Of a stretch of DNA of 64,000 nt, positions 3,725 through 50,387 are shown piece after piece. The position numbers and the translations under genes were made by a program. The notes under the pieces are model-generated. The model had not been told where the DNA came from, ran no database searches, and saw nothing but the letters and a program-made list of their open reading frames with translations. Position 1 is the stretch's first letter; each line of letters begins with the position of its first letter. This stretch comes from an uncultured Acidobacteriota bacterium (GTDB lineage Bacteria; Acidobacteriota; Thermoanaerobaculia; Multivoradales; UBA5704), in assembly GCA_963770895.1 (NCBI GenBank), contig CAVYRF010000001.1, positions 704,481-768,480 of the forward strand, written 5' to 3'.

Positions 3725-3725
3725 A

Positions 3726-3761
3726 GGTCCAGCGTTGGTATCTCGGGCGGGTCGCTGGACC
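3726..3761 (-). promoter_or_regulatory. perfect 9-bp inverted repeat (GGTCCAGCG-N18-CGCTGGACC) filling the kaiB-histidine kinase intergenic gap
   Basis: The rc of 3726-3734 equals 3753-3761 exactly. The stem ends 2 nt before the kinase ATG and 5 nt after the kaiB stop. No U-tract follows, so this is a possible translational or attenuator hairpin. Confidence 0.35.
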
Positions 3762-3766
3762 GCGCA

Positions 3767-4108
3767 TCATCTCCGCGGCAGCACATCCAATCCCACCAGC
3801 ACCCGTTCCGTCTGTGACAGGTCGCCGATGATCTTGCGCATCGGCGCCGGCAGCTTCCTTACCAGGGTCGGGATCGCCAGGATCTGGTCCGCCCGCGCCA
3901 GGTGCGGGTTGGCCATGAGGTCGATCACCTCGACCCGATATCTCCCTGCAAGATGCTCGCCGCAGATCTTTTTGAGGTTGCTGAGCGCCGCCATTGAGCG
4001 CGGGGTCTGGCCGGCGACGTAGAGCCGCAGGTCCCAGGTTCCCTCCTCCTGCTCGGGCGGGAGCGATGGAGGCGATGGAGACGAGGTGGTCTGGTCGTGG
4101 TTGCTCAT
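3767..4108 (-). CDS. kaiB: circadian clock protein KaiB
   Basis: 113 aa. [81 protein letters not shown] is a near-canonical KaiB thioredoxin-like sequence. GGAAGGAA RBS. Its ATG overlaps the kaiC stop (ATGA at 4105-4108). It is embedded in a longer spurious 387-aa ORF. Confidence 0.9.
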
Positions 4109-14162: not shown

Positions 14163-14855
14163 ATGAAGTGTCTCATCCGACCCACGCTGGCGGCGCTCTC
14201 CCGGCGCGCCGGCATCGCCTCGGTGCTGGCCGCGATCGCCGCGACCGCGATGGCCGTGATCGTGCTGACCGTCACCGCCGCACCGCTCGGCGCCGCGGTG
14301 GCCTGGACCGACCACCTGACGACGGCCCCTCCCGAACCGCCGCTCGCCCCGCCCGCCGGCCCCGTCTCGCCGGCCCGCAAGTACTTCTCGGACGTGGAGC
14401 TGGTGGACCAGAACGGCCACACCCAGCACCTGTACAGCGACCTGCTGCAAGGTAAAACGGTCGTCGTCGAAGCCTTCTTCACCACCTGCACCGGCGCCTG
14501 TCCGGTGATGGGGCAGAAGCTGGCCGCCCTGCAGGAATGGCTGGGAGACCGCCTCGGCAAGGACGTCTACCTGCTCTCCTTCTCCGTCGATCCGCAGACC
14601 GACACCCCGGCGCGCCTCAAGCAATACGCCCAGCAGCTGGGCGCCCGGCCAGGCTGGTACTTCCTCACCGGCAAGAAGGAAAACGTCGACTGGGCGCTCT
14701 ACAAGCTCGGCGACTACGTCGAGCAGAAGCAGGATCACTCCAACCTGCTGATCTTCGGCAACGAGCCGACCGGTCTGTGGAAAAAAGTCTTCGGTCTGGC
14801 CCAGTCCGAAGACCTGATCCACTCCCTGGATGCGGTGCTGCACGACCGCGGTTAG
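14163..14855 (+). CDS. SCO1/SenC family copper chaperone, paralog 2 (membrane-anchored)
   Basis: 230 aa. FTTCTGACP CxxxC motif, an N-terminal TM helix and a GGAGGTTGAGAAGGAG RBS. Confidence 0.85.
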   Translation: MKCLIRPTLAALSRRAGIASVLAAIAATAMAVIVLTVTAAPLGAAVAWTDHLTTAPPEPPLAPPAGPVSPARKYFSDVELVDQNGHTQHLYSDLLQGKTVVVEAFFTTCTGACPVMGQKLAALQEWLGDRLGKDVYLLSFSVDPQTDTPARLKQYAQQLGARPGWYFLTGKKENVDWALYKLGDYVEQKQDHSNLLIFGNEPTGLWKKVFGLAQSEDLIHSLDAVLHDRG

Positions 14856-16980
14856 CCGCCGCCACCGCCGCTGCTCACTGCCAGGCGGACTGCAAGCAGT
14901 TGCCTGGCTGTGGCTCCTGGCCGCGGCGCCCTGTCTGGCCCAGGGCGCCGGCGCCCCGCCTGCCGCCCAGGCGGCGATGGTCGCCGCCGGCAAGCAGATC
15001 TACCGCACCGGCCATGACGCCGCCGGCCCCGAGATCATGGCCGTGCTCGGCGGCCAGCAGGGCGCCGAGGTGACCGCCGCGGCGCTCCCCTGCGCCGGCT
15101 GTCACGGCCGCGACGGCAAGGGGCGCCCGGAAGGCGGCGTCACCCCGTCCGATCTGACCTGGGACGCGCTCAGCCGCCCCTACCAGCTCGCCGAGCCCGG
15201 CAGCCGCCGCCACCCGCCTTACGACGAGCGCACCCTCAAGCGGGCCATCACCCTGGGCATCGACGCCGGCGGCCAGGCGCTCCAGGCCGCCATGCCGCGC
15301 TACCGCCTCACCCAGGAGCAGGCCGACCACCTGATCGCCTACATCAAGACCCTGGGGCGCGAGGCCGACCCCGGCGTTACCCCCGACCGCCTGCGCCTCG
15401 GCATCCTGCTGCCGCCCGAGCCCGAAGCCGCCGCCGTGCGCCGCGCCCTGGACGCCGCCGCCGCCCGTCTCAACGCCACCGGCGGCCTCTATGCCCGCCG
15501 TCTCGACCTGCGGTACCTGCCGCCATTGCCGCAGTCTGCCGCCATGCCGGGGCCGGAATCGACCGCTTTGGCGGCGTCGGGGATGGTTGCTTTGTCCAGG
15601 CCGGAGCTGGTTGTAGTGCGGGTGTCGGCGCCGGACGCCTTGTATCGGCCGGAGGGGGCTGCAATGCGGACACCAGCGCCGGCGGCGTTGGATGCGGCTG
15701 ACGCGGAGTCACCGCAGCGGGCTTCCTCGCCAGGGCCGGAGGCTGCAATGCGGGCACTGGGGCCGGCTACTTTGGCGGCGCCGGAGCCGGCTGACGCGGA
15801 GCCTCCGGAGAGGGTTTCCTCGCAAGGTTCCGGGGCGGCCGACCCTCTCGCCTCCGGCTCGGTTGTGCCGCCGGCTTCGCCGGCGCAGTCGGCCGCCTGG
15901 CGCGCCGCGGTCGAGCGGTTCCTGGACGCCGAGCAGCCCTTTGCCCTGGTGGCGTCGGCCGCCGCCGGCGAGGAGGCGGCGCTGGCATCCCTGGCCGCCG
16001 ACCGCGAGCTGCCCGTGGTGGGCGCCCTGACCGGGGCGCCGCCGCCGGCTTCGTCGCTCGATCGCTATGTTTTCTATCTCCAGCCGGGACTTGCCGAGCA
16101 GGCGCGAGCCCTGGTCGAGGCGGTATCCGCCGGCCTGGGCGGCGTGCCGCGCCACGCCGGCCTGCTGATCGCCGCGGCGCAGCCCGAAGCCGTGGCCGCC
16201 GCCGCCCGCGACCAGTTCGACCGCACGCGCGTTCAACCCTGGGCGGCGACCTGTGCGCCGGGAGACCGCCAACTGGCCGCGCGCATCGTCGAAGCGAATC
16301 AGGCCGGCGTCGACGCCCTGGTCTTTATCGGCGGCGCCCAGGACGCGCACGACCTGCTCGCCGGCGCCGACGCCCTGGGCTGGCATCCGCGCGTCTTCCT
16401 GCTGGCGGCCCTCGCCGCCGGCGCCGTCCTGGACGCGCCCGCTGCCTTCGCCGGCCGCCTCTACCTGGCCGCCCCCGGCCTGCCGTCGGATCTCACCGCA
16501 AAAGGCGCCGCGGCGCTGCTCGCCGCCGGCCTCGCACCCCCTTCGGGAGCGCCCGCGGCAGCCGCACCGCCCGACAACCAGGCCCCCGGCACCGCAGCCA
16601 ACAGCGGCCCGGCGGCCCAGAGCCCTACGGCTACCGCTCCGGCGCCCACCGCCCCGGCAACCCGCGGCCCGGCGTCCGGAGCCTCGGCCGGCGCCCCGGC
16701 GACACAGGCCAAGGAGCTGCCGCGCGCTACGCTCTACGAGCGTCAGGCGCTGGCGGCCTTTGCGACCTTCACCGAGGCGCTGACCCACTGCGGCCGCGAC
16801 CTCAGCCGCGACCGCCTGATCGACGCGCTGGAGGGGATGCACGACTTTGACACCGGCCTGACGCCGCTGCTCACCTTCGGCCCCGAGCGGCACCTGGGGG
16901 CGTTGGGCGCCTACGTCGTCGTCTTCGATCCCGCCCGCGGCGGCCTGGCTCCGGCCGGCGGTTGGGTGGCGCCACGTTGA
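14830..16980 (+). CDS. c-type cytochrome fused to a type-I periplasmic binding protein (Leu/Ile/Val-BP-like) domain
   Basis: 716 aa. Signal peptide (AVAWLWLLAAAPCLA). Heme site CAGCHG in the N-terminal roughly 200 aa. A Pro/Ala-rich repeat linker. A C-terminal roughly 330 aa PBP1-like domain. The ATG at 14830 overlaps the Sco paralog 2 end by 26 nt and is the only in-frame start that retains the signal peptide. Confidence 0.75.
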   Translation: MRCCTTAVSRRHRRCSLPGGLQAVAWLWLLAAAPCLAQGAGAPPAAQAAMVAAGKQIYRTGHDAAGPEIMAVLGGQQGAEVTAAALPCAGCHGRDGKGRPEGGVTPSDLTWDALSRPYQLAEPGSRRHPPYDERTLKRAITLGIDAGGQALQAAMPRYRLTQEQADHLIAYIKTLGREADPGVTPDRLRLGILLPPEPEAAAVRRALDAAAARLNATGGLYARRLDLRYLPPLPQSAAMPGPESTALAASGMVALSRPELVVVRVSAPDALYRPEGAAMRTPAPAALDAADAESPQRASSPGPEAAMRALGPATLAAPEPADAEPPERVSSQGSGAADPLASGSVVPPASPAQSAAWRAAVERFLDAEQPFALVASAAAGEEAALASLAADRELPVVGALTGAPPPASSLDRYVFYLQPGLAEQARALVEAVSAGLGGVPRHAGLLIAAAQPEAVAAAARDQFDRTRVQPWAATCAPGDRQLAARIVEANQAGVDALVFIGGAQDAHDLLAGADALGWHPRVFLLAALAAGAVLDAPAAFAGRLYLAAPGLPSDLTAKGAAALLAAGLAPPSGAPAAAAPPDNQAPGTAANSGPAAQSPTATAPAPTAPATRGPASGASAGAPATQAKELPRATLYERQALAAFATFTEALTHCGRDLSRDRLIDALEGMHDFDTGLTPLLTFGPERHLGALGAYVVVFDPARGGLAPAGGWVAPR
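15650..15840 (+). repeat. imperfect ~85-bp tandem duplication encoding the Pro/Ala-rich inter-domain linker of the cytochrome-PBP fusion
   Basis: gctgacgcggag(t/c)c(a/t)ccg...cctcgcca(g/a)gg(c/t)ccgg and ggctgcaatgcgg(a/g)cac each recur twice. Confidence 0.4.
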
Positions 16981-17810
16981 TGGGCGCCGCCCCCGCCAGC
17001 GCCGGCGGGCAGGTCGGCGCTGCCTACGACTCGATCGCCGCGGCATACGATGGCTTGGTCAGCGAAGACGCCTGGATGCGCGAGCGGCTCTGGGCGCACC
17101 ACCTGCGGGTGTTTCCCGCCGGCGCGCGAGTGCTGGACGTGGCCTGTGGCACCGGCCTCGACACCCTGCACCTTGCCGCGCGGGGTCGCCGCCTGACCGG
17201 TGTGGACGCCTCGCCGGGGATGCTGGAAGCGCTGCGCGACAAGGCCGCGGCGCTCGGGCTTGCCGGTCAGGTCGCGGTGCGGGCGGGCGACGCCGGTCAG
17301 CTGGACGATTGGGAACCCGCCAGCTTCGACGGCATCCTGTCGTCTTTCGCGGGCCTCAACACCACCGACCTGTCCGCCTTCGCCGCCGCCGCCGGCCGCC
17401 TGGTACGTCCGCGCGGCCGGGTGGTGATCCACCTGCTCGCGCCGGCCGGCATCTGGGAGCGCCTGCGCCTCGCCGCCGCCGGGAGCCCCGGCGCCGCGCT
17501 GCGCCTCGGCCGCCGCCGCCAGCTCACGGTCACCATCGCCGGAAGCGCCGTGACGCACCACCTGCTGCCCGCCGGAGACCTCTATCGCCGCCACTTCCAC
17601 GCCGCCTTCCACCTGCGCCGCTGGTACGGCCTGGGCTGGCTCTGGCCGCGCCAGTTCGGCGCCCGGCTAGGCCCCCGCACCGCCCGGGTGCTGGGCGGGC
17701 TGGACGCCGCCCTGGGCCGCTATGAACCCTGGCGCCGCTGCGCCCGCTTCCTCGTTCTCGACCTGGAGCGCCGCGACGACCAGGCCGGCCCCATCGAACG
17801 GCACGGTTGA
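16980..17810 (+). CDS. class I SAM-dependent methyltransferase
   Basis: Motif I VLDVACGTGLDTLHLA. Its ATG overlaps the upstream stop (TGATG). In frame with ORF-track entry 16962..17810. Confidence 0.75.
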   Translation: MGAAPASAGGQVGAAYDSIAAAYDGLVSEDAWMRERLWAHHLRVFPAGARVLDVACGTGLDTLHLAARGRRLTGVDASPGMLEALRDKAAALGLAGQVAVRAGDAGQLDDWEPASFDGILSSFAGLNTTDLSAFAAAAGRLVRPRGRVVIHLLAPAGIWERLRLAAAGSPGAALRLGRRRQLTVTIAGSAVTHHLLPAGDLYRRHFHAAFHLRRWYGLGWLWPRQFGARLGPRTARVLGGLDAALGRYEPWRRCARFLVLDLERRDDQAGPIERHG

Positions 17811-17895: not shown

Positions 17896-18837
17896 ATGTA
17901 CTCGCGGAGAGGGCGCATGCGCAAGCTGTTGGCGGTGCTGTTGGAGCTGGCGATCGGACTGATCGTCGTGGCGGTGTTGTTCGTCGACGTGCGGGTCCTG
18001 CTGCAAAGCCCAACGTTGATCTATCTGTTCCTGCCGGTCGTCTGCGTGATCACTCTTGGCGTGGGCGCCTGGCGCGGCCGCACCAGCCCGCTCGCTGGTT
18101 GGCAGGTGGTGGCGCTGATCAACCTGCCGACGCTGGTGATCGTTGCTGCGACCGCGGGACGCGCCTGGCTGCAACTGCTCGCGTTGCCGGTTCTAGGGGC
18201 GGCGTGTACCGGTCTGGGATTGGCCGTGGCGCGCGGCCCGGCGGCCCGGCGACCGTGGCGGGCCGTGGTGCCGCTTTTGGCCATCGTGCTGGTTGCCTTG
18301 GGAGCCCTGGGCCCGCGGTTCGCCCGATCGCTGGTGTTCAGCGACGAGCAGCGCCAGCCCGCCGTCGCGTTCCGCTTCACCGACCTGGGCACCGGCGCGG
18401 TCGTCGGTGCGGAGCAGCTGCGCGGCCGCGTCGTGGTGATCGACTTCTGGGCCACCTGGTGCGTGCCCTGCCAGCACGAGCTGCCCGAGCTGGACCGTAT
18501 TGCGCAGCGCTTTGCGGGCGACCGCCGGGTGGCGTTCTACGCCGTGGACGTCCCGATGACCGACACGCCGAACGACCAGGGCGACACTCCCGAGCGGGCG
18601 CGGGCACTGTTCGGCCGCCGCGGGTTTCGCCTGCCGCTCGGTTTCGACGCCGGCGGCAGCGCGGCCGTCGCGCTGCACGCCCACGGCCTGCCGACGCTCA
18701 TCATCCTGGATCGTACAGGCCAGATGCGGCTGCGCCGCGTGGGCTACACCGGTGCCGAGGACCTCGGCGCAATCCTGGACGCCACCCTCGGGAAGCTCCT
18801 GGCCGAAGGCGCCGCGACCCCGCCGAGCCCCTCCTGA
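17896..18837 (+). CDS. membrane-anchored TlpA/ResA-like thiol:disulfide oxidoreductase
   Basis: 313 aa. Four predicted N-terminal TM helices, then a thioredoxin domain with WCVPC (FWATWCVPCQHELPEL). Confidence 0.8.
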   Translation: MYSRRGRMRKLLAVLLELAIGLIVVAVLFVDVRVLLQSPTLIYLFLPVVCVITLGVGAWRGRTSPLAGWQVVALINLPTLVIVAATAGRAWLQLLALPVLGAACTGLGLAVARGPAARRPWRAVVPLLAIVLVALGALGPRFARSLVFSDEQRQPAVAFRFTDLGTGAVVGAEQLRGRVVVIDFWATWCVPCQHELPELDRIAQRFAGDRRVAFYAVDVPMTDTPNDQGDTPERARALFGRRGFRLPLGFDAGGSAAVALHAHGLPTLIILDRTGQMRLRRVGYTGAEDLGAILDATLGKLLAEGAATPPSPS

Positions 18838-18886
18838 AGAGCGGCCCCACCGCCTTGCCGCGCCGGAGCCAGGGAGGCGCGCCAAG

Positions 18887-18920
18887 TTGAACGATGTTGG
18901 CTTTTTGATATGTTGTAATT
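18887..18920 (+). promoter_or_regulatory. putative sigma70-type promoter of the microgene
   Basis: TTGAAC (18887-18892), 16 nt spacer, TATGTT (18909-18914). TGTAAT immediately follows. AT-rich island in a 70% GC background. Confidence 0.4.
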
Positions 18921-18955
18921 GCGGTCAATGTACCAACGGCCCAAGGAGGGCTCCG

Positions 18956-19084
18956 ATGAAGAAAACGCTGATCAAGATTCGTCGTGAGACGCTGATCCCA
19001 CTCGAGGATCAATCCACTTGGCGCATCGCGGTGGTGGGCGCGACGGGCAAGTGCCCTTCCATCAACATCGGGTGCAATCAGTAA
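18956..19084 (+). CDS. 42-aa Cys-containing small protein/peptide (MKKTLIKIRRETLIPLEDQSTWRIAVVGATGKCPSINIGCNQ)
   Basis: Consensus RBS AAGGAGGG 5 nt before the ATG. Its own promoter-like island lies upstream and a hairpin 18 nt downstream. It is only the in-frame tail of the 110-aa ORF-track entry 18752..19084. Confidence 0.5.
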   Translation: MKKTLIKIRRETLIPLEDQSTWRIAVVGATGKCPSINIGCNQ

Positions 19085-19101
19085 AGCCCGAATCGGTATC
19101 G

Positions 19102-19131
19102 TCTGCGGGCGGGTTACAACCTGCCCGCAGA
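19102..19131. terminator. 12-bp stem / 6-nt loop hairpin between convergent genes (putative bidirectional terminator)
   Basis: TCTGCGGGCGGG-TTACAA-CCTGCCCGCAGA with one mismatch. It sits between the microgene stop (19084) and the ICL-family gene stop (19222). Confidence 0.4.
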
Positions 19132-19221
19132 TCCGGCCATTTCACCAATTCGCCCAGGAGCGCCGCCTTCGCGGCTGGTGCCGTTGTTCATCGCTGGGCT
19201 CGCCGAGCACTTGCAAATGAC

Positions 19222-20052
19222 TCATGACGCGAAGATCGCGCTGATCTCGCGCGGGCTGGCGGCCTCCTCGGCATAGGTGAAGGTGCCGTGCTCGCGCATC
19301 TCGCGCGCGGCGCGCAGGAAGGCGCCCAGCGCGGCGCGCGCCAGCGAGCTGCCGATGCTGATCCGCCGCACCCCCATCTCCGCCAGGGCGGCCTGGCTCA
19401 GCTGCACGCCGCGCAGCCCCATCACCACGTTGACCGGCCGGTCCACCGAGCTGATCACCGCCGCGATGTCTTCCCTGGTCGCCAGGCCCGGCGCATACAG
19501 CACGTCGGCGCCCGCCTCCTGGTAGGCCTGCAAGCGGGCAATCGTGTCCTTGATGTCCGGACGGCCGTGCAGGTAATTTTCGGCACGGCCGGTCAGCATG
19601 AAGGGGACGGGGAGCGCCCGCGCCGCCTCCGCCGCGGCGCGCACCCGATCCGCCGCCAGCTCGCGCTCATAGATCGGACTGTCGGCGCGCCCCGTCGCGT
19701 CCTCGATCGAACCGCCGACCACGCCCGCGGCCGCCGCCAGCCGGATCGTCTCGGCAGCCGCCTGGGGGCTGTCGCCGAAGCCGTTTTCCAGGTCGGCGCT
19801 CACCGGCAGATCGGTCGCGTACGCGATCTGCGCCAGGTGTTCCATGATCATTTCGCGGTCGACCGCGTTATCCAGCTTGCCGACCGAAAACGCGAAGCCC
19901 ATGCTGGTCGTAGCCAGCGCTTCGAAGCCAAGGTGGGCCAGCAGCCGCGCGCTGCCGATGTCCCAAGGATTGGGAATGATGAACGCCCCGGCGCGCTCAT
20001 GCAGCGCCCGAAACGCCTGTCCTTTTTCAACTTGCGAAGTCATCGTCGTCAC
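19222..20052 (-). CDS. isocitrate lyase / PEP mutase family protein (2-methylisocitrate lyase-like)
   Basis: 276 aa. IIPNPWDIGSARLL, TSMGFAF and GGSIEDATG blocks are typical of the ICL/PEPM superfamily. Confidence 0.85.
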   Translation of the reverse strand: MTTMTSQVEKGQAFRALHERAGAFIIPNPWDIGSARLLAHLGFEALATTSMGFAFSVGKLDNAVDREMIMEHLAQIAYATDLPVSADLENGFGDSPQAAAETIRLAAAAGVVGGSIEDATGRADSPIYERELAADRVRAAAEAARALPVPFMLTGRAENYLHGRPDIKDTIARLQAYQEAGADVLYAPGLATREDIAAVISSVDRPVNVVMGLRGVQLSQAALAEMGVRRISIGSSLARAALGAFLRAAREMREHGTFTYAEEAASPREISAIFAS

Positions 20053-20199
20053 CCGATCTCAAGCGCCTTGCCAGTGAACCGCCAGCAGCGGAGCTCCCGC
20101 CAGCGCCAGCGCCAGCCCAGGCCGCCGCCGTGAGCCCTCAGTATATTGCGCCGGCACCCTCGGCAGTGTGCCGCCGGGTCGGCCGGAAGGTAGCGCGCA

Positions 20200-20630
20200 A
20201 TGGCGGTGGGCCGGTGCCTGGGCGGCGATGCGCCGGCGAGGTGGACCGGCGGGTCGGTCGGTTGGTCGATCGGGCGGCCGAGTGGACCGGTGGACTGTGT
20301 GGTGATCGGTCGGCGGGGCGGACCGGTGGGGCCGGTGGGTCAGTTGGCGATCGGTCGGCGGCTTGGATCGGGGGTCGATGGGTCAGGCGTGCAATCAGGG
20401 CGAAAAAGGTAGCGGGTCGAGGGGGAGGTCGGGTGGTGGACCGGTGCACCGGCGACGATGGTTCGGCGGAGGGGACCGGGCGGGTAAGTCGGTTGGCGAA
20501 GCGATGGAATGATGGGGCTGCGGCGGACCGTTGGGTCGGCCGGCGAAGGGTCGGCGGGGCAATGGAGCGTTGGGCAGGTGGGGTGGTGGGCAGGGGGTGT
20601 GGGATGTGAGTCTGGCCGATGGGATAAAAT
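20200..20630. repeat. strand-biased GT-rich degenerate repeat tract (GGTCGG / GGACCGGTGG / GATCGGTCGGCGG units)
   Basis: About 430 bp of non-coding sequence between divergent genes, made of imperfect reiterations of G/T-rich 9-13-mers. Both ORFs predicted here are compositionally aberrant. Confidence 0.4.
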
Positions 20631-20637
20631 TGCCGCC

Positions 20638-21915
20638 ATGCAGCTTGCATTTCTCACGCTCTTTTTGGGCCTGGTCACAGGCTCGCTGCCGCTGTCGCTC
20701 ACCGCCGGCCCCGACGTCGCCAAGGTCGAGATCGTGCTGGACGGCGCTCCGGTTCAACGCCTGGCCGCGCCGCCCTGGAGCGGCAGGATCGACTTTGGCG
20801 CCGCGTTGCTGCCGCACCACCTGGAGGCGCGCGGCCTGGATGCCCAGGGGCGCGAGGTGGCGCACGCCGAGCAGTGGATCAACGTCCCGCGCGACCCCGC
20901 GGAAGCGCAGATCGTGGTCGAAAAAGCCCAGCCGGGCCAGCCTCGCACCATCCGTCTGGCCTGGCAGAGCATCACCAGCGACGCGCCCACCAAGGTGGCG
21001 CTCACCTTTGACGGCGCGCCGCTCGCCTTCGACAGCCAGTACCGCGCCGTCCTCCCCGCCCTCCACGGCACCGACACGCACGTCGTCGCGGCCGAGCTGC
21101 AATTTGCCGGCGGCGCCACGGCGCGCCACGCCGTCGCTCTCGGCGGCGAATATGACGACGCCGTCGCCAGCGACCTGACCGCGGTCCCCGTCTGGATCGC
21201 GCCGCGCGCCGAGCTGCCGCCGCTCGCCAGCCTGCAGGGGTGGTTTGCCGAAGAGGGCCGCCCGCTCCAGGTGCAGGCTGCCGACGCTGCCGCGCCCTGG
21301 CTCCTCACCGTGCGCGACGCCGCGGCCATGAAACTGCTCCGCCTCAGTTGGATGGCCCGCGACCGCTTCCGCTTCAAGCTGCCGCCGGGCAGCCGCATGC
21401 GCTTCATCTGGCCCCAGGCCAAGCGCCATGAAGCCTCGGGCCTGCCTTCCGAGATCTTCGACAGCAGCACCTACGCCATGGACGTGGCGCGCGACAGCAT
21501 CCCCTGGCTGCTCACCCGCGTCCAGCAGCCCGGCGCGGACCATCCCCGCCTGGCCGACGCCGCCGCCGCCTCAGGCCTGGCGCTGGCCGCCGCCGCCGGC
21601 CCCCGCGCCCTGATCGTCGTCCTGGATCCCGACACCAAGGACTACAGCCACCTCGACAGCGCCACCGTCCGCCGCTACCTGGAAGCCATCCACATCCCCC
21701 TGTTCGTGTGGGCAGTCGGCCCCCCCTCCGCCGACCTGACCGCCACCTGGGGCCACGTCACCAACATCTCCGTCGAATCCGGCATGGAATCCGCCTTCGC
21801 CGCCCTGCGCCAGGTCCTGGACCGCCAGCGCATCGTCTGGCTCGCCGGCCACCACCTTCCCCAACGCATCGCCCTGACCCCAGCCGCCGCCGGCCTCCAG
21901 CTCACCCCGCCCTGA
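20638..21915 (+). CDS. secreted hypothetical protein
   Basis: 425 aa from ATG 20638. Sec signal (MQLAFLTLFLGLVTGSLPLSLTA). GATAAAAT -10-like element upstream. No recognisable catalytic motifs. Confidence 0.6.
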   Translation: MQLAFLTLFLGLVTGSLPLSLTAGPDVAKVEIVLDGAPVQRLAAPPWSGRIDFGAALLPHHLEARGLDAQGREVAHAEQWINVPRDPAEAQIVVEKAQPGQPRTIRLAWQSITSDAPTKVALTFDGAPLAFDSQYRAVLPALHGTDTHVVAAELQFAGGATARHAVALGGEYDDAVASDLTAVPVWIAPRAELPPLASLQGWFAEEGRPLQVQAADAAAPWLLTVRDAAAMKLLRLSWMARDRFRFKLPPGSRMRFIWPQAKRHEASGLPSEIFDSSTYAMDVARDSIPWLLTRVQQPGADHPRLADAAAASGLALAAAAGPRALIVVLDPDTKDYSHLDSATVRRYLEAIHIPLFVWAVGPPSADLTATWGHVTNISVESGMESAFAALRQVLDRQRIVWLAGHHLPQRIALTPAAAGLQLTPP

Positions 21916-22103: not shown

Positions 22104-25100
22104 GTGTCTGACAGCGAGCACCCTTTCGCCGCGCGCGGAGCTGGCGCGGCTCCGCAGGACCTCGCGCCGGCCGGCGATCTGGACGGCGGGGACGGCCGTG
22201 ACGCGATGCTGCGGGCGGCCGGGCCGGAAGAGCGGGCCGCCCTGGCGCTGGCCTGGCTGCGGCGCCAGGCGGCGGCCACCCTCGACCGGGACGCCGCGCA
22301 GCTCCCCGCGGACCGTTCGCTGGTGGCCCTGGGATTGGACTCGCTGGCGGCGGCCGAGCTCTCGGGCGCCGTCGAAAACATCCTGAAAGTGCCGCTCGGT
22401 GTAGCCGACCTCCTGGCCGGCGCCAGCCTCGCGGAGCTGGCCGGCGACATCGCCCGCAATCTCGATGAGGCTGCGGCGGCGTCGCACGCCGGCCAAGCCG
22501 GCGGTACGGTCCACGCCGGGGACGACGGCCGCCAGGTGGTCGTGCCGGAGCCCCACCGCGCCGGCGCGCCGCCCCCCGCCGCGCCGTCGCCCCGCACCGC
22601 CCTGTCGTGGGGCCAGCGCGCCCTGTGGCTGGTGGACCGCATGGCGCCGGGCAACCCGGCCTACATCCTGGCCGGCGCCGCGCACGTCGGGGTTGGCGCC
22701 GCGCGCGGCGGCGACCTCGACGTGGCGCGGTTGTGTCAGGCCATTACCGCCCTGGTCGCTCGCCATGCGGCCTTGCGCATGCGGTGCGAGCAGGGGAGCG
22801 ATGGAGAGGTGGTGCAGGTGGTGGGCGACCAGCCGCTGTTCGGCTGGCTTGAGGTGGATGCCGGCGTCCTGAGCGAGCAAGGGTTGCACGAGCTGGTGGC
22901 AGAGGAGGCTTGGCGGCCGTTCGACCTCGCCCGCGGGCCGCTGCTGCGAGTGGCTCTGTTCCGCGGTGGCGGCCGGGCGCCGCTGCTGGTGCTCGCGGTG
23001 CATCACATCGTCGCCGACTTCTGGTCGCTCGGCGTGATGATCGACCAGCTGGGTGCGCTCTACCAGGGGCGCCTCCTGGCGCCGCTCGCGGCGACGCATG
23101 GCGAGCACGCGCGGCGCCAGGCGGAGCGGTTGGCGGGACCCGAGGGGGAGGCCCTGGCGGCCTGGTGGCGCGCCGCGCTGCCGCCGGGGGCGCCGGCGCT
23201 CGAGCTGCCGACCGACCGGCCGCGGCCGCCGGTGCAGGGATTCCGCGGTGGCGCGCGGACGCGCTGGTGGGAGCGGGAGCTGGTAGGGGAGCTCGACCGG
23301 CTGGGCCGGCGGGCCGGGGCCACGCCGTTCATGACCCTGCTGGCCGCCTACATGACGCTGCTGCACCGCTACACCGGCCAGCCGGAGCTGCGGGTGGGGA
23401 CGCCAGCGTCCGGCCGTGGCGCGCCGGACCTCTCGGGCCTGGTGGGCTACTTCGTCAATCCGCTGGTGGTGCGCGGCGAGCTGGCCGGCAACCCCGGCTT
23501 CGAGCAGCTGCTGAGCCGGGTGCGGCAGGCCGTGCTCGCGGTGTTTGCCCACCAGGACTTCCCGTTTGCGCTGCTCGCCGAGCTGCTGGGCGGCGCCCGC
23601 GATCCCAGCCGGCCGCCGGTGTTCCAGGCGATGTTCGTGTTCTACAGCGAGCGGCGCGCCGGCGAGCGCGGGATGAGCGGTTTCGCGCTGGGCGAGGCGG
23701 GCGCGCGGCTCGATCTTGGCGGCCTCACGCTCGAATCGGTGCGGCTGCCGCGGCGCGGCGCGCAGGTCGATCTGACGTTGCTGGCGGCCGATCGCGACGA
23801 TCGCGACCAGCGCGCCGAGCGCGAGGGTGCGCGGGCGGTCTCGTTGCAGTTCGACAGCGTGCTCTTCGACGGCGCCACGGCGGAGCGGATGCTGGGTCAC
23901 CTGTGCGCGCTGGCCGCCGCCGCGGTCGCCGATCCGGGGTGCGGCATCCGCGACCTGCCGCTGCTCACCGCCGGCGAGCGCCAGCAGGTGGCGGAGTGGA
24001 ACGCCACCGCCGTCGCCTGGCCTGGCGACCTGCGCCTGCACCAGCTTTTCGAAGAGCAGGCGCGCCGCACCCCGGACGCGGTGGCCGTGGTGGTCGACGC
24101 CGCTACCGACGCCGACGCCGACGCCGACGCTGATACCGGCGCCGACACCGCCGGCGCCGGGTCCCGTCGCGGCCCCGCACCGCCGGCGGCCGGCCGCGCG
24201 GTGGCTTCCGCCGCGTGCTGGACCTACCGCGGCCTCGACCGGCGCGCCGACCGGCTGGCGCGAAGGCTGCGGCAGGCCGGCGTCGGGCCGGAATCCGTGG
24301 TGGCGATCCTGGCCGAGCGCTCGGCCGCCATGGTCGCCGGCCTGCTCGCCATCCTCAAGGCGGGCGGCGCCTACCTGCCGCTCGATCCCGACCACCCCGC
24401 CGAGCGCCTGCGCCAGATGCTGCACGACTCAGGCGCCGGCGTGCTCCTGGCACAGCGCCGGCTGCTGCCGCGGCTGGGCGAGCCGGACGCGCCGCCTGTC
24501 GTCGCGGCCGCGGTGCTGGTGCTCGACGATCCCGACCGGGACGATTCCGCCCAGGACGAGCAGGACGATCCCGCCACCGGCGGTGCCGCGTTCGGCGCTG
24601 CCGCTCTTGCGCTGGCGCCCGACGGCCGGCCGGAGCGTGCGCCGCCGCCGCTGGAGCGCGCCGTCCACCCGGATAGCCTGGCGTACGTGATCTATACCTC
24701 GGGCTCGACCGGCCGGCCCAAAGGCACCATGAACACGCACCGGGGCATCGTCAACCGGCTGCTCTGGATGCAGCAGCAGTACCGATTGGCGGCCGACGAC
24801 CGGGTGTTGCAGAAGACGCCGCTGTCCTTCGACGTGTCGGTCTGGGAGCTGTTCTGGCCGCTCGCGACGGGGGCGTGCCTGGTGATGGCCCGTCCGGGCG
24901 GGCACCGCGACAGCGGCTACCTGCTGGCGGCGCTGGCGGCGCACCAGATCACCACCGTGCATTTCGTGCCGGCGATGCTGAGCGATCTTCTCGCGGCCCT
25001 GCCGCCGCGGGGCGATGCAAGCTCGGGCGCCGGCCCGTGGGACGCCGCGCCGGCAGGGCTGCGCCGGGTCGTGGCAAGCGGCGAGGCGCTGCCCTACGGT

Positions 25101-28100
25101 CTCCAGCAGCGCTATTACGCGGCGCTCGCGGCGCCGCTGCACAACCTCTACGGCCCTACCGAAGCCGCGGTCGACGTCACCCATTGGGCGACCGACCCGG
25201 ACGCCGATCGGCGGCTGGTGCCGATCGGGCGGCCGGTGGCCAACACCTGGATCCGGCTGGTCGACCGCCAGGGCGGGCTGGTGCCGATCGGTGTACCGGG
25301 CGAGCTGTGCATCGGCGGCGTGCAGCTGGCGCGCGGCTACCTGGGCCGCCCGGCGCTGACCGCCGAAAGGTTCGTGCCCGATCCGCTGGGCGACGCGGCA
25401 GGAGCGCGCCTCTACCGCACCGGCGACCTGGCGCGCTACCTGCCGGACGGTGCCATCGACTACCTGGGCCGCCTGGACCACCAGGTGAAGATCCGCGGCG
25501 TGCGCATCGAGCTCGGCGAGATCGAAGCTGCCCTGCTGCGCCATCCGGCCGTGCGCGAAGCGGTCGTCACCGTGGCCGCCGTGGCGGACCACGCCTCGCC
25601 GGCCGGCGCCGACCCGCGGCTGGCGGCCTACCTGGTGACGCGCGGGGCGGCCGCGCCGCCGCGGGCGGGAGAGCCGGCGGCTGGGGAGCCGGCCGCGCCG
25701 CCTGCTGCGCCGGCCGCCGCGCCGCCGTCCGACCTGGCCGACGACCTCCGCCGCCTGCTGCGTCAGAGCCTGCCGGAGGCGATGATCCCGGCGGCCTTCG
25801 TGGTGCTGCCCGCGCTGCCGCTGTCGGCCAACGGCAAGGTGGACCGCCGGGCGCTGCCGGCGCCGCGGTGGGGCGCCGCCGCGGTCGCGGGCACGCCGCC
25901 GCGCACTGCCGACCAGGAGATCCTGGCCGGCCTGTTCGCGGAGCTGCTGGGGCTCACGGTCGCTGGCGACCGCAGCGGCGACAGCAGCGGCAACGGCGGC
26001 AGCAGAGCTAGCGGCGACAGCAGCGACGACGGCGAAAGCAGCGGCAACGGCGGAAGCAGCGGCAACGGCGGAAGCAGAGGCAGCGTCGACAGCGGAGGCA
26101 GCGGCGCCGCGGCCGGCGGGTGGGTGGCTGGAACACAGGGGGGCGAAGCCGCGGACGCGCGCGGCGTCGCGGCGGCGAGCGGTGGGGAGCAAGGCGGCGG
26201 CCTTGGCATCGACCAGAGTTTTTTCGATCTCGGCGGCCATTCGCTGCTGGCGACCCGCCTGCTGGCGCGGGTGCGCCAGGTGTTCGCGGTGGAGCTGCCG
26301 CTGCGGCAGGTGTTCGAGGCGCCGACGGTGGCCAGGCTCGCCGCGGCGATCGCGGCGGCGCGGCGGGGCGACCTGGCGGCGGCGCCGCCGCTCGTGCCGC
26401 TGCCGCCCGCGGCTCGCCAGGGGCCGCTGGCGCTCAGCTTCGCGCAGGAGCGCATGTGGTTTCTCGACCAGCTGGAGGGCGGCGGTGCCACCTACAACAT
26501 GCCCGGCGTGCTGCGCCTCGCGGGCCCGCTGCAGGTGGCGGCGCTGCGCGCCGGGCTGGCGGAGGTGTGCCGCCGCCACGAGGTGCTGCGCACGACGTTC
26601 ACCGTGCGCGATGGCGCCGCGGGGCCGGTCGCCCGCGTCGCCCGGCCGGCCGCCGCTCCGGGGCCGCCGCTGCCGCTGGTGGATCTGTCCGGGCTGGCGG
26701 CCGGCTGCCGACAGGCGGTCGCCTCGCGGCTCGCCGCCCTGGAGGCGCGGCGCCCGTTCGACCTCGTCGCGGGCCCCGTGCTGCGCGCCGTGCTGCTGCG
26801 CCTGAGCGGCGGGCCGCCCGCGGCGGCGCAGGCGCTCCACCTGCTGCTGCTCACGCTGCACCACATCGCCGCCGATGCCGAGTCGGTCGAGGTGCTGGCG
26901 CGCGAGCTGGCCGCCCTCTATACCGCGGGTGCGACCGGCAGGCCGCCAGACGCGGCGGCGCTGCCGCCGCTCCCCGTCCAGTATGCCGACTTCGCCGCCT
27001 GGCAGCGGGCGGCGCTCAGCGGCGACCGGCGCGCGGCCGAGGTGGCTTTCTGGCGCGAGCAGCTTGCCGGCGCGCGCGGCGCACCGCCGGTGCTCGAGCT
27101 GCCCTGCGATCGGCCGCGCGGCACGGTGAGCGGCCGGCGCGGGGCGCGGCGCCCCGTGGTGCTGCCCGCCGCGCTGGCCGGCAGGCTCGCGGCGGTGGCG
27201 CGGGACCACCGCGCCACCCTGTTCATCGCCTTGCTGGCGGCCTTCGACACCCTGCTGGGCCGTTACGGCGGCCAGGACGACGTCGCGGTGGGCGTGCCGG
27301 TCGCCAATCGCGACCGCGCCCAGATCCAGCCGCTGATCGGGCTGTTCGTCAACACGCTGGTGCTGCGCCTCGACCTGTCGGGCGACCCCACCTTTGGCGA
27401 GCTCCTGGGGCGCGCGCGGCAGACGGCGCTGGCCGCCTACGGCCACCAGGAGATGCCGTTCGAGCAGCTGGTCGCCCACCTGCAGCCGCGGCGCGCAGCG
27501 GGCGAAAGCCCGTTCTTCCAGGTGGTCCTGGCGCTCCAGCCCGGCCTGGCGGCGCCGGCGATGGCGGGCCTGGCGGTCGAGCTCGCCCCCGGCGACACCG
27601 GCACCGCCAAGTTCGACCTGTCTTTGGCGCTCGACGTCGCGCCCGACGGCAGCCTTGCCGGCACCTGGACCTGGCGCGCCGGCCTGTTCGACCCGGCGAC
27701 GATCGAGCGGCTTTCGGTGCAGCTGCGGCAGCTGCTCGCGGCGGTCGCCGCGGGCGAACCGGGACCGGCGGGCCGCCTCTCCGAGCTGCCGCTGCTCGGC
27801 CCGGCCGAGCGCCACCAGCTGCAGCGGGAATGGAACGACGTCTGGCAGCCGGGCGGCGGCGACCTGCTGCATGCGGCGTTCGAGCGGCGGGCGGCGCAGG
27901 TGCCCGACGCGGTGGCGGCGGTGGAGGCCGGCCACGACGGCCTGATGGGGCGCAGCCTCACCTACGGCGAGCTGGCGGCGCGCGCCGGCCGGCTGGCGTG
28001 CCGGCTGGCGGCGCTGGGAGTCGCGCCGGAGCGGATCGTCGGCGTCTCGCTCCCGCCGTCGCTCGACCTGCTGGTGGCGCTGCTCGGCATCCTCAAGGCG

Positions 28101-31100
28101 GGCGGCGCCTACCTGGCGCTCGATCCGGCGCAGCCGCGGGAGCGCCGGGCGCAGATCCTGGCCGAGTCGTCGGCACTCCTGGTCGTCGCCGCGAGTCCTG
28201 CGGCGCCCACCGCTCCGGTTACCGCCGCCACCGCCGCCGCCTCCTCCTCCGTCATCGCGGCCACCACCGCCGCCGCCGCCGCGCGCCCGTCCGCGGTCGA
28301 GGGCCTGATGCTGCTCGGCCCGGACGGGCGCGCGGCGGCGCTGGGCGCCGCGGCCGGCGCCACCCCCCGGCGCACCCCGTTCCCCCCGGCCCCGGATCCG
28401 GACCCCGACAACGCCGCCTACGTCCTCTACACCTCCGGCTCCGGCGGCGCGCCCAAGGGCGTCGTGGTCAGCCATCGCGCCGTCGTCAACCGTCTGCGCT
28501 ACCAGGTTGCCGCCGACCTCGCGCCCGACTCGCGGGTGCTGCAACGGGCGCGCCTCGCCTTCGACGTCTCGGTGCTGGAGCTGTTCGCGCCGCTCTGGGC
28601 GGGCGCCGCGGTGGTGCTGATCGATGCCGCCCGCCAGCAGGACGCCGGCTACCTGGCCCGCGTCGTGGCCGCGCAGCAGGTCACCAACTTCAACGCGCCG
28701 CCGGCGTTGCTCCCGGCCCTGCTGGCCGAAGACGAGCTCCGCCGCTGCCGCGCGCTGCGCCGCGTGGTGCTGGGCGGCGAGCGGGTGCCGGTCGACCTCG
28801 CTCACCGATTCGCGACGATGATGGCGGCTGGGCCTGGGGCGGCGCCGTTGCTGCTGTCGCGCTACGGTCCGACCGAGGCCACCATCTCGGTGACCGAATG
28901 GCACTGCCGCCCCGCGCCGGCCGCGCCTGCCGGTTCGGCCGGACCGCTCGGCTGGCCGATCGCCGGCGCTCGCCTCCACCTGCTGGACCGCCATGGCCGC
29001 GAGGTGCCGCCCTCGGCTCCGGGCGAGCTCTGCATCGGCGGCATCTGCCTGGCGCGCGCCTATCTCGCCCGGCCCGACCTGACCGCCGCGGCGTTCATCC
29101 CGGACCCCTTCGCGGCGCCGGGCGAAGAGGCGGGCAGCCGCCTCTACCGCACCGGCGACCTGGCGCGCCGGCGCGCCGGCGGCGAGCTGGAATTCCTCGG
29201 CCGCATCGACCGCCAGGTCAAGATCCGCGGCTTCCGCGTCGAGCTGGGCGACGTCGAGGCGGCGCTCGCCCGCCACCCCGGTGTGCGCGAAACGGCGGTG
29301 GTGGACCGCGACGAGCCGGCGACCGGCGGCAGGCGCCTGGTGGCCTACGTGGTGCCCCGCCAGGCGGATGCCGGCGGGCTCGAGCCGCAGGCGCTACGGT
29401 CTTTCGTCGCGGAGCACCTGCCGCCCTACATGCTGCCCGCCGCCTGGGTCCTGCTGGACTGCCTGCCGCTCACCGCCAACGGCAAGCTGGACCGGCGGGC
29501 GCTGCCCGAGCCGGCCGACCTGTCGCCGGCGGCGGACGCGGCGGAGCCGGCTGCGCTGGACGGGGCGAGCGGCCGCCGCGGCGCCGCCCCCCGCACCCCG
29601 GCCGAAGAGCTGCTGGCGGGGATCTGGTGCCAGCTCCTGGGCGTCCGGCAGGTATCCATCGGGGACGACTTTTTTCACCTGGGCGGCCATTCGCTGCTCG
29701 CCACCCAGCTGGTGTCCCGGCTGAGCGCGACGCTGGCGGTCGACCTTCCCCTGGCCAAGGTTTTCGAGCACCCCACCCTGGCGGCGATGGCGTCGGCGAT
29801 CGAGCAGGCGCGCGGCCTGGGCGGCGCGGAGCCCACCGTCGCCGGGCTCGCCGGCCGTCTGACGCCGGCGCACGAAGCCGGCGGCGGCGCCGGCCGGGGC
29901 GACGGCGCGCGGCCGGTGCCGCTACCGCTCCTGCCGCGGCAGGCGGGCGGCGCCGCGGCGCAGCTGCCGCTGTCGTTTGCCCAGCAGCGGCTCTGGTTCC
30001 TGGACCGCCTGGCGCCCGGCTCGCCGGCCTACAACATGCCGCTGGCGGTGCGGCTCTCCGGCGACCTGGACATCCCCGCCCTGGCTGCCGGCGTCGCCGC
30101 CCTGGTGGCGCGGCACGAGACCCTGCGCACCACCTTCCACGAGACCGCGGGCGAGCCCTGGCAGCGGATCGCGCCGCCGCTCGCCGCCGGTGCCAGCTCC
30201 GGCGCCGGCGCCGGCGCGGCCGCCACAAGCGCGCTGCCGGTCGTCGACCTGCGGGCGCTGGTGGACGCCGGTGAACCGGACGGCGAGCCGGGCGGTGGGC
30301 CGGGGCTGGATGCCGGCTGGCCAGGTCAGCCGGATGGTTTCGCGCCGCTGCCGCTGCCGCGGCGCGCGCTCGCCGCGGCGCTCGACCTGGCCGCGGCCGC
30401 GGCGCGGCGGCCCTTCGACCTGGCGCGCGGCCCGCTCTTCCGGCCCCTCCTGCTGCGGTTGACCGGGCGCGAGCACCTCTGGCTGGGGACCATGCACCAC
30501 ATCGTCTCCGACGGCTGGTCGCTGGGCGTCCTGGTGCGCGAGCTGACCGCCGTCTACGCCGCGCTGGCGGCCGGCCGGGAGCCCCGTCTGCCGGCCCTGC
30601 CGGTGCAGTACGCCGACTACGCCGCCTGGCAGCGCCAGCGCCTGTCCGGCGACCTCTTGGCGGCGCAGATCGCCCACTGGCGCGAGCGCCTGGCGGGCCT
30701 GCCGGCGCGGCTCGACCTGCCGGTGGACCGGCCGCGCCCGGCCGTCGAAACCGTCGCCGGCGCCCAGCGGCGCTGGCGCCTGGCCGGCGACGTGGCCGGC
30801 CGGCTGCGCCAGCTGGCGGCAGCGTCGGGGGCGACCCCGTTCATGGTCCTGGTCGCCGCCTTCCAGGCGCTCCTGGGGCGCTGGTCCGGTCAACAGGACC
30901 TGGCGGTTGGCACGCCGATCGCCGGCCGCAACCGCATCGAGATCGAAGGCCTGATCGGCTTCTTCGTCAACACCCTGGTGCTGCGCGCCGATCTCTCCAG
31001 CGGGCCGCGGCGCCTGGCGTTCGACCAGCTGCTGGCCCGCACCCGCGAGGCGACCCTGGCCGCGTACGCCCATCAGGAGCTGCCGTTCGAACGGCTGGTC

Positions 31101-34474: not shown

Positions 34475-34717
34475 TCAATCGCTCAGCGACCTCTTCTCAC
34501 CCAGCAGATCCTCGATCTCCGCGAGCAGGTCATCAGCCTTTCCAGCGTATGCCCGCGCGAGACCCGCGTCAGTCTCCCGGCGACGCTTTGCTGAAAAATA
34601 GGTTTTGACAGCTGAGCTGATAAAGGCCGAACGACCCTTTTGTTGGGTTTCTGGATCGTCGTCGATCCGTCGCAGCAGCTCTTGATCCAGCCAGATCCTT
34701 ATGGGGCGAGTTGTCAT
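34475..34717 (-). CDS. ribbon-helix-helix (CopG/antitoxin-like) DNA-binding protein
   Basis: 80 aa. MTTRPIRIWLDQELLRRIDDDPETQQKG is a typical RHH N-terminus. An alternative start 13 codons upstream (34756) is possible. It is convergent with the NRPS, and no toxin partner is adjacent. Confidence 0.6.
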   Translation of the reverse strand: MTTRPIRIWLDQELLRRIDDDPETQQKGRSAFISSAVKTYFSAKRRRETDAGLARAYAGKADDLLAEIEDLLGEKRSLSD

Positions 34718-35196: not shown

Positions 35197-35216
35197 CGCC
35201 CCTCCTGCGCAGCCGT

Positions 35217-35382: not shown

Positions 35383-35402
35383 GTGTGCCGCCGCCATGGG
35401 AA

Positions 35403-36794: not shown

Positions 36795-36803
36795 GTCGGA
36801 TGT

Positions 36804-50385: not shown

Positions 50386-50387
50386 CG

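Follow-up and report, generated by a model that had tools for sequence, protein, structure and literature searches.

A probable lineage-restricted 42-codon gene downstream of tlpA in an uncultured acidobacterium, with a tentative leader-plus-core peptide product

An AT-rich island in the genome of an uncultured Acidobacteriota bacterium (class Thermoanaerobaculia) carries a 42-codon open reading frame (ORF) with candidate expression signals of its own, and we put the probability that it is a separately expressed small-protein gene, confined to one narrow lineage, at roughly 80%. The ORF lies in a 64-kb stretch of contig CAVYRF010000001.1 (assembly GCA_963770895.1, positions 704,481 to 768,480 of the forward strand), hereafter the window, 118 nt downstream of a gene for a TlpA-like thioredoxin-fold protein. 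Judged from its sequence, the small gene is best filed as a lineage-restricted orphan of unproven function, which no known family claims. As to mechanism, our preference, tentative and held at well under even odds, is that it encodes an exported pre-peptide made of a leader and a core.

The locus had been described in a first-pass annotation as a self-contained microgene. Its parts are all in place: the TTGAAC-N16-TATGTT pair, the ribosome-binding site (RBS) five nucleotides before an ATG, the Cys-containing 42-codon ORF and the hairpin. To that promoter description we add a TG at 18906-18907, which gives an extended -10 (TGnTATGTT), and the hairpin, reported as imperfect and of 12 bp, folds here with a longer stem. 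The elements of the unit, and an inverted repeat that precedes it, are as follows.

18854-18886, no strand assigned: inverted repeat of 11 bp, CTTGCCGCGCC ... GGCGCGCCAAG, with an 11-nt loop, between the tlpA stop codon and the promoter-like site
18887-18914, plus strand: promoter-like site, TTGAAC at 18887-18892, 16-nt spacer, TATGTT at 18909-18914
18943-18950, plus strand: Shine-Dalgarno sequence AAGGAGGG, then a 5-nt spacer and the ATG at 18956
18956-19084, plus strand: 42-codon ORF with its stop codon (TAA at 19082-19084), translation MKKTLIKIRRETLIPLEDQSTWRIAVVGATGKCPSINIGCNQ
19102-19131, no strand assigned: hairpin with a 14-bp stem and a 4-nt loop, between the ORF and a convergent gene of the phosphoenolpyruvate (PEP)-mutase family

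The sequence AAGGAGGG is much the strongest Shine-Dalgarno sequence among about 25 start sites inspected in the window, starts that were themselves called only roughly, and the pattern AAGGAGG-N6-ATG occurs once in the 64 kb, both strands included, where 0.07 occurrences are expected by chance. The promoter hexamers agree with the consensus at 8 of 12 positions, which is below the reporting of a consensus scan, and we treat the site as a candidate signal read from the sequence. With its flanks (19085-19145) the hairpin folds at -34.1 kcal/mol (z = -5.5), none of 200 shuffles folds equally well, and its sequence is found once in the window. It has no U-tract and the scan did not call it as a canonical intrinsic terminator. 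It is likely to be a two-way terminator or a 3'-end stabiliser, and as a transcription signal it is a candidate rather than a demonstrated one.

To score the coding potential of all six frames, we used a codon model built from the window's own confident genes. The ORF frame scored +1.8 bits and the other five between -15 and -63; this score was reached by none of 2000 shuffles and by only 0.1% of out-of-frame windows from real genes. Because its frame is by far the best of the six, the ORF is probably translated. The GC content at the three codon positions (GC1/2/3 = 0.48/0.45/0.76) takes the direction expected of a translated frame in this genome. The NCBI/ENA entry for the source contig (2.24 Mb) lists the ORF among its called genes, and an independent assembly of run ERR11571140 also contains it. 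In-frame codon-position bias, an RBS at functional spacing and, as described below, a frame kept in a relative are the marks of a genuine small ORF, and we are largely confident that this is a real translated gene.

The AT-rich island that had been claimed here is pronounced. The mean GC content of the window is 73.2% (standard deviation 5% over 200-nt windows), whereas the 200 nt at 18884-19083 have 52.5%, about 4 standard deviations under the mean and the second lowest 200-nt value in the window. Compared with in-frame windows from real genes, the ORF falls at the 5th percentile for codon score and at the 2nd for synonymous codon choice; it is thus compositionally atypical. Atypical codon usage and the AT island together fit a recently acquired accessory gene.

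We then searched for relatives among about 15 billion proteins overall, together with genome, metagenome, viral, plasmid and phage DNA collections. Among 5.8 billion protein clusters, searched through a word index, the only matches were the ORF and one relative of 42 residues, P0002, at 81% identity. P0002 sits on a 9.1-kb JGI metagenome contig (L001), where it was likewise called as a gene, and the gene order there is as in the window: methyltransferase, TlpA, peptide, convergent PEP-mutase-family gene, a protein of the 425-residue type described below, and a non-ribosomal peptide synthetase (NRPS). Back-translated conserved blocks matched nothing in the genome, metagenome and viral contig DNA, tblastn against plasmids and phages gave only matches at E ~1 or worse, and searches of Pfam, NCBIfam and PDB sequences with the peptide at E <= 10 gave none.

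When 1.84 billion representatives were scanned in full with HMMER, a single further protein appeared: P0003, a NACHT protein in which HEAT_2/PBS-lyase repeats are numerous. The E-value of 1.9e-11 sums 10 repeats, and the best alignment taken alone reaches 27.7 bits, with gaps at core positions. The peptide segment ETLIPLEDQSTW-RIAVVGA does resemble the repeat ELIPLLQDQSxWVRxSVVAA, but the peptide matches no HEAT model even at E <= 10. We therefore rejected P0003 as a homologue and regard it as a chance resemblance inflated by summed repeats.

The comparison with L001 sets the unit apart from its flanks. In the alignment of the two loci we found:

tlpA-to-ATG spacer: 116 aligned nt, 19 substitutions (16.4%), 5 indel events, one of 61 nt
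ORF: 129 aligned nt, 10 substitutions (7.8%), 0 indels
stop codon to hairpin end: 51 aligned nt, 4 substitutions, 1 indel of 1 nt

A further indel, of 73 nt, follows directly 3' of the hairpin, so that the indels of 61 and 73 nt lie immediately outside the promoter-to-hairpin unit. This block is thus a conserved island in a fluid spacer. Start, RBS, stop and reading frame are all intact in the relative. The stretch GCTTTTTGATATGTT is identical, keeping both the TG and the -10, whereas the -35 hexamer is not conserved and its region carries a 3-nt indel; a sigma-54-like reading of the L001 -35 region, compared by eye, was discarded, as it is not conserved in the window. AAGGAGG is kept, with a spacer to the ATG that differs by 1 nt, and the hairpin is kept save for one extra G. 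The 18854-18886 inverted repeat, which could mark the end of the tlpA operon, is split in L001 by the 61-nt insertion, and its arms are not kept. The lower substitution density of the ORF relative to the upstream spacer is marginal (Fisher p = 0.047), and zero indels in the ORF have P ~0.01 given the indel density of the proximal flanks. The description as a self-contained microgene is backed by codon-position bias and by a frame that the sole relative keeps intact. The check proposed with that description, that the frame be conserved in related genomes, holds in this one case, with a single relative too close for a strong test.

The selection statistics rest on these two closely related sequences, the window ORF and its L001 orthologue. 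Nine of the 10 substitutions in the ORF are nonsynonymous, giving a nonsynonymous rate (dN) of 0.099, a synonymous rate (dS) of 0.035 and a ratio (omega, dN/dS) of ~2.8. In the four adjacent genes dN is 0.014-0.035, dS 0.08-0.16 and omega 0.14-0.22, and a partial comparison of the NRPS gave an omega of 0.48; leaving that partial comparison aside, the peptide's dN is higher than theirs by a factor of 3-7. With omega set to 0.2, as in the neighbours, the nonsynonymous excess has P = 0.0016. The reading frame is conserved, yet purifying selection on the peptide sequence was not seen. With two sequences this close, diversifying selection and neutrality are not separable. The eight amino-acid changes are T4A, L5Q, I14V, E17Q, R23S, I24N, K32R and P34I. 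They leave the blocks IKIRRETL, DQSTW, AVVGATG and SINIGCNQ invariant, as they do Thr30, Cys33, Ser35 and Cys40, and the net charge is +4 in both peptides in spite of charge-changing substitutions. Rapid amino-acid change is common among secreted or competitive peptides.

The peptide itself has a K/R-rich N-terminal half with E-T-L-x-P-L-x-D, Gly-Ala at 28-29 preceded by Val at -4, and a 13-residue tail with T-x2-C and S-x4-C. Its two Cys are spaced C-x6-C, it has no His, and Met occurs only as the initiator. The best 19-residue Kyte-Doolittle mean is 0.7 and the grand average of hydropathy (GRAVY) -0.14, with no transmembrane- or signal-peptide-grade stretch and no lipobox. AlphaFold2, run on the two-sequence alignment, returned a mean confidence (pLDDT) of 48 with essentially no secondary structure, a prediction that is uninformative in itself but fits a peptide without an autonomous fold.

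Our model, then, suggests that the unit would be transcribed alone or as the last cistron of the sco-tlpA operon, that the ORF would be efficiently translated, and that transcription would stop at the hairpin, which would also close the convergent gene. The product would be a cationic leader-plus-core pre-peptide of net charge +4 with no fold of its own. Its N-terminal ~29 residues, with the K/R-rich IKIRRETLxPLxDQ and ending VVG-A, would form a leader, to be recognised and removed by processing and export machinery whose genes lie elsewhere in the genome. The C-terminal 13-mer TGKCPSINIGCNQ, with its invariant T-x2-C-x-S-x4-C, may then close a C33-C40 disulfide loop or, if a lanthionine synthetase exists elsewhere, may carry two thioether rings. 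The calculated monoisotopic masses are 4680.54 Da for the full-length peptide, 1333.61 Da for the free 13-mer, 1331.60 Da for its disulfide form and 1297.59 Da with two thioether rings. Once released, the peptide would work extracellularly, as a signal or in the manner of a bacteriocin. In favour of this reading we count the unique RBS pattern, the best frame score, the indel-free ORF, the fast dN, the invariant Thr/Ser/Cys and the constant +4 charge, as well as the lack of a transmembrane stretch or predicted fold and the atypical codons in an AT island. Granting that the gene is real, the leader-plus-core mechanism gains a little and still falls short of an even chance.

Double-glycine-type leaders, cut by C39 peptidase-ABC exporters, are found in class II bacteriocins, microcins and class II lanthipeptides, for example lacticin 481, whose leader ends in GA. 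Their consensus is LSxxELxxIxGG, with hydrophobic or acidic residues at -4, -7, -8 and -12. The peptide resembles such precursors in being encoded by a short ORF and in its charged N-terminal half, G28-A29 at -2/-1, hydrophobic residue at -4 and Cys-containing C-terminus. The G28-A29 pair, of the GG/GA/GS type, is invariant in both peptides; a two-residue motif is weak evidence.

Several points weigh against a leader-plus-core product. The double-glycine consensus is matched only at -1, -2 and -4 (Val26), with Arg/Ser at -7, Trp at -8 and Asp at -12. The comparison rests on only two, closely related sequences, their dN/dS of ~2.8 is indistinguishable from neutral change (P = 0.29), and the peptide sequence may be under no selection at all. 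Substitutions are spread evenly, 6/29 in the 'leader' and 2/13 in the 'core'. Precursors of bacteriocins and of peptides made on ribosomes and then modified post-translationally (RiPPs) normally lie adjacent to at least one maturase, exporter or immunity gene, and neither a maturase, a C39-ABC exporter nor an immunity gene was recognised anywhere in the window. The peptide matches no precursor-family hidden Markov model (HMM) in Pfam or NCBIfam. A scan of the plausible window ORFs recognised no C39/ABC transporter and no LanB/C/M/KC/L, YcaO, ATP-grasp, MNIO/DUF692 or lasso enzyme. In favour of the mechanism, it is common for a C39 leader peptidase to be encoded at a distance from the precursor (PMC8939145). 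We keep the confidence in the mechanism low because of the missing processing gene, the missing family match and the imperfect consensus. For the RiPP-like precursor proposed in the first-pass annotation the layout fits and the context gives no support, as no recognisable maturase, C39 exporter or precursor HMM match was found in the window. Besides the peptide's own layout, no defining feature of a RiPP or bacteriocin locus is present.

Individual peptide classes were compared in turn. T30-x2-C33 and S35-x4-C40 stand at (methyl)lanthionine-ring spacing and are invariant, with K32R and P34I varying around them, as in lanthipeptide precursors. Unlike those, the peptide has no LanB, LanC, LanM, LanKC or LanL domain among the window ORFs scanned, no family HMM match (E <= 10) and no clear FNLD-type or ELxxBxG leader box. 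Prochlorosin-type stand-alone RiPP precursors are encoded far from their enzyme, in multi-copy families that share one leader. The ORF resembles them in carrying its own expression signals with no neighbouring enzyme and differs in that the 64-kb window holds no paralogue of the peptide, leader-sharing or otherwise.

Four further classes lack their defining features here. Lasso precursors carry Thr at leader position -2, Gly, Ala, Ser or Cys at core position 1, Asp or Glu at core positions 7-9, and an adjacent cyclase and leader peptidase/RiPP recognition element (RRE). Here no register fits, as placing T30 at -2 starts the core with Lys and no acidic residue follows residue 18, in agreement with the earlier exclusion of a lasso peptide; no Asn-synthetase-like cyclase, leader peptidase or RRE gene was found among the window ORFs scanned. 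For a peptide modified by radical S-adenosylmethionine (SAM) enzymes (sactipeptide, ranthipeptide or proteusin), the nearest radical SAM gene, at 38522-40816, is 19 kb off, past the NRPS and metal-homeostasis genes, a SPASM protein at 48317-49738 is 29 kb off, and no radical SAM gene reaches a curated RiPP-family cut-off. Methanobactin MbnA and bufferins were set aside, as DUF692/MNIO, MbnC and DUF2063 were not found in the window and the peptide has no signal-peptide-like hydrophobic core. A type I toxin or small membrane protein was set aside for want of a hydrophobic transmembrane helix (best mean 0.7, GRAVY -0.14).

The rival that survives best, though we consider it unlikely, is an intracellular microprotein: the full-length 42-mer would stay in the cytoplasm and use its basic N-terminal half to bind nucleic acid or a larger partner, in a layout (basic strand, then helix, then G-x-T) superficially like CopG. 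The gene looks real and has strong translation signals, the peptide lacks a signal peptide, lipobox or transmembrane segment, and most nearby genes are unconnected with peptide processing, all of which would suit such a protein. Minimal ribbon-helix-helix (RHH) proteins of the CopG/Arc type (~45 residues) are of similar length, and the peptide shares with them a basic, strand-like N-terminal segment (MKKTLIKIRRE) and a G-x-T at 28-30 where RHH proteins carry G-x-S/T/N; G28-A29-T30 has the same numbering as G-R-S in the RHH-like gene at 34475-34717. Against this, Pfam gave no match to RHH or any other family at E <= 10, hhalign against the window's RHH-like protein returned a probability of 0.8%, and there is no partner toxin gene; an RHH assignment is not supported. 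The C-terminal part is also rich in helix breakers (G31, P34, G39), which fall in the would-be helix B (TGKCPSINIGCNQ), while Pro15 falls in the would-be helix A. AlphaFold gave no structure, and rapid amino-acid divergence is unusual in a structured binder.

Somewhat less probable again is a young, effectively neutral ORF, or proto-gene, that would be transcribed and perhaps translated with no selected function, its conservation reflecting short divergence time. It would account well for an omega that does not differ from 1 and for a dN of 0.099 near the neighbours' dS of 0.08-0.16, for a carrier count of two with the ORF absent from all other relatives examined, and for the atypical codon usage and lack of a predicted fold. 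On the other side, an accidental ORF would hardly be expected to come with so much ready-made signal: a consensus RBS, ideally spaced and found once in 64 kb, a conserved extended -10 and a strong hairpin. A GC3 of 0.76 vs 0.46 implies some history of the frame being read as codons, and substitutions are half as dense in the ORF as in the upstream spacer, with zero indels.

It is improbable that the conserved block is non-coding, that is, the 3' untranslated tail and terminator that end the sco-tlpA operon, or else a small RNA, the ORF being fortuitous. In support, no element is better conserved or more significant than the hairpin, the 231-nt stretch as a whole has a somewhat better fold than its shuffles (z = -2.8), no conserved terminator lies between tlpA and the ORF, given that the 18854-18886 repeat is not kept in L001, and the ORF substitutions lack protein-level constraint. 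Yet a Shine-Dalgarno sequence, an ATG and an open frame together have a chance expectation far below 0.01 for a spacer of this size, the codon score is far above that of the other five frames and of all shuffles, and the frame is intact in L001 though the flanks are dense in indels. Rfam gave only chance-level matches (E >= 1.1). A 9-bp long-range pairing of the promoter region with codons 18-23 proved no better than chance level. Terminal inverted or direct repeats, which would mark a mobile insertion, were looked for around the unit, and none was convincing.

Very improbable is a thiol/copper micropeptide that would work with Sco, cytochrome c and TlpA, as a TlpA substrate or a Cys carrier in copper-centre assembly. 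The genes upstream are:

14163-14855, plus strand: SCO1/SenC gene
14830-16980, plus strand: cytochrome c fused to a periplasmic-binding-protein-like domain
16962-17810, plus strand: SAM methyltransferase
17896-18837, plus strand: TlpA-like thioredoxin-fold protein, 118 nt upstream of the ORF

The first-pass annotation had placed a Sco/Sco/cytochrome/TlpA cluster here. Of this cluster one SCO1/SenC gene was confirmed rather than two, and a SAM methyltransferase lies between the cytochrome c and TlpA-like genes. The ORF's position on the same strand just 3' of the TlpA-like gene, its two invariant Cys and the compatibility of the data with co-transcription from tlpA all speak for a thiol or metal-handling role. 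However, TlpA orthologues at 61-67% identity have other gene contexts and no 42-codon ORF, and the peptide has only two Cys, in a C-x6-C that, lacking His or a non-initiator Met, is to our knowledge not a copper site. MNIO/DUF692, MbnB/C and bufferin-type genes were not found in the window, and the AT-rich, atypical composition separates the ORF from the operon.

The link to neighbouring genes fails in other genomes as well. TlpA identity in the large protein collection falls from 94% (L001) straight to 67%, contigs with TlpA at 65-67% have no synteny with the window, and the closest TlpA relative among species-representative genomes, in a Thermoanaerobaculia metagenome-assembled genome (61%), has a different gene directly after tlpA. 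By this nearest TlpA the lineage that carries the ORF probably belongs to Thermoanaerobaculia. By tblastn the peptide was found neither in 80 metagenome loci around PEP-mutase-family orthologues (67-80%) nor in the TlpA loci and one fetched locus of an orthologue of the 425-residue protein. Two such orthologues (62-63% identity) lie in different contexts, and the DNA of one was examined; a 42-residue gene called beside it is unrelated to the peptide, a coincidence of length. Because orthologous neighbour loci lack the peptide, the ORF belongs to a single, sparsely sampled lineage, and no neighbour has it as a conserved companion.

A regulatory leader peptide (attenuator), for which a short ORF followed by a hairpin would speak, is refuted, since beyond the strong hairpin comes the 3' end of the minus-strand convergent gene (19222-20052), a plus-strand gene begins only at about 20509-20638, some 1.4-1.5 kb further on, and neither a regulatory codon run nor an alternative anti-terminator pairing is present.

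Downstream of the unit the window continues as follows.

19222-20052, minus strand: PEP-mutase/isocitrate-lyase-family gene, convergent with the ORF and far under the cut-off for a true PEP mutase
20638-21915, plus strand: secreted or anchored protein of ~425 residues with no Pfam or NCBIfam family
22104-34448: three-module NRPS with a thioesterase domain
34780-35346, minus strand: universal stress protein
35403-36812, minus strand: Nramp/MntH transporter
36965-37417, plus strand: glyoxalase-family protein
37606-38271, minus strand: DtxR/MntR-type repressor with a FeoA domain

For the ~425-residue protein there are 76 homologues (33-63% identity) in varied contexts, most of them from assemblies of Thermoanaerobaculia and other Acidobacteriota, and from these sequences it is a conserved family without assigned function. 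The spacer at 20150-20620, between it and the PEP-mutase-family gene, is strongly G-skewed (GC skew up to +0.52) and holds about 5 degenerate copies of a ~45-nt unit (GGACCGGTGG...GATCGGTCGGCGG), spaced 36-45 nt apart, as well as GGTC repeats that are shorter. The metal-homeostasis group at 34780-38271 directly follows the NRPS and, given this adjacency, the NRPS product might be a metallophore. The most AT-rich spot of the window (50.5% GC) is at 34475-34717 on the minus strand, where a small gene of ~80 residues (MTTRPIRIWLDQELLRRIDDDPETQQKGRSAFISS...) has the look of an RHH or HicB-type antitoxin, with a weak HicB_lk_antitox match (E = 0.034). This AT-rich island and that of the 42-codon ORF bracket the block of PEP-mutase, 425-residue-protein and NRPS genes at 19.2-34.4 kb, with both small genes pointing inwards, and the two may be the borders of an acquired island.

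Beyond lies a cluster at 38522-60144 with four B12-binding radical SAM genes (38522-40816, plus; 46896-49463, 50388-51785 and 51787-53367, all minus), a radical SAM/SPASM gene (48317-49738, minus), a SAM methyltransferase (49396-50808, minus), an NTP_transf_5 nucleotidyltransferase (41949-43721, plus), several GT4 glycosyltransferases, a hexapeptide transferase and a Wzx-like flippase. Its radical SAM and NTP_transf_5 genes are 19-34 kb from the ORF, amid glycosyltransferase and polysaccharide-export genes, and none reaches a curated RiPP-family cut-off; the cluster may serve modified glycan or lipid synthesis, or be a peptide cluster. The ORFs at 46896-49463 and 48317-49738 (both minus) are long, lie in different frames, overlap by more than 1 kb and both have radical SAM matches, and the regions 39-43 kb, 45-50 kb and 53-57 kb give poor coding calls, which suggests assembly frameshift errors or unusual overlapping genes.

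A motif scan of the fetched loci (basic start, [KR]E[ST][LIVM]xx[LIVM], C-terminal Cys) returned the two family members and a JGI-called 58-residue ORF on contigs L167/L168 (4996-5172, minus strand; MQKKKAVRLKLQRESLRHIGIEPLQQAAGDGYYTVPCPPTAVACHSGPDCTVVTCPTL). This Cys/Thr/Pro-rich ORF opens with MQKKKAVRLKLQRESLRHIG and further on carries CPPTAVACHSGPDCTVVTCPTL, and its leader-like KLQRESL motif resembles IKIRRETLIPL. It lies upstream of genes for uncharacterised proteins of 235 residues (4200-4907, minus, with a signal peptide) and 142 residues (3662-4090, minus), with a zf_CopZ protein, MerT and MerR nearby, and the same contig has an orthologue of the 425-residue protein; an uncharacterised peptide locus is possible there. 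A stricter form of the scan gave 0-2 matches on shuffled data, none with a Shine-Dalgarno sequence. Because we designed the motif ourselves, the L167 ORF is a weak lead and no evidence of homology. As a speculation that we think doubtful, and less probable than a neutral proto-gene, the 42-codon ORF would be the first member of an undescribed leader-plus-core family in Thermoanaerobaculia-like Acidobacteriota, with a K-[IL]-x-R-E-[ST]-L leader, a Thr/Ser/Cys core and distant maturation enzymes. The L167 ORF would then be a distant cousin, and its uncharacterised secreted neighbours candidate maturation factors.

The practical value of the finding is modest under either reading. If the ORF is a neutral young one, it would be a lineage-specific microgene fully equipped with promoter, RBS and terminator and with no detectable purifying selection, which bears on the origin of small genes. 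If it is real and its product is processed, it would represent a new scaffold for bioactive peptides, from an uncultured acidobacterial lineage that has been little studied, and a precursor encoded away from its machinery, of a type that cluster-based genome mining misses by design.

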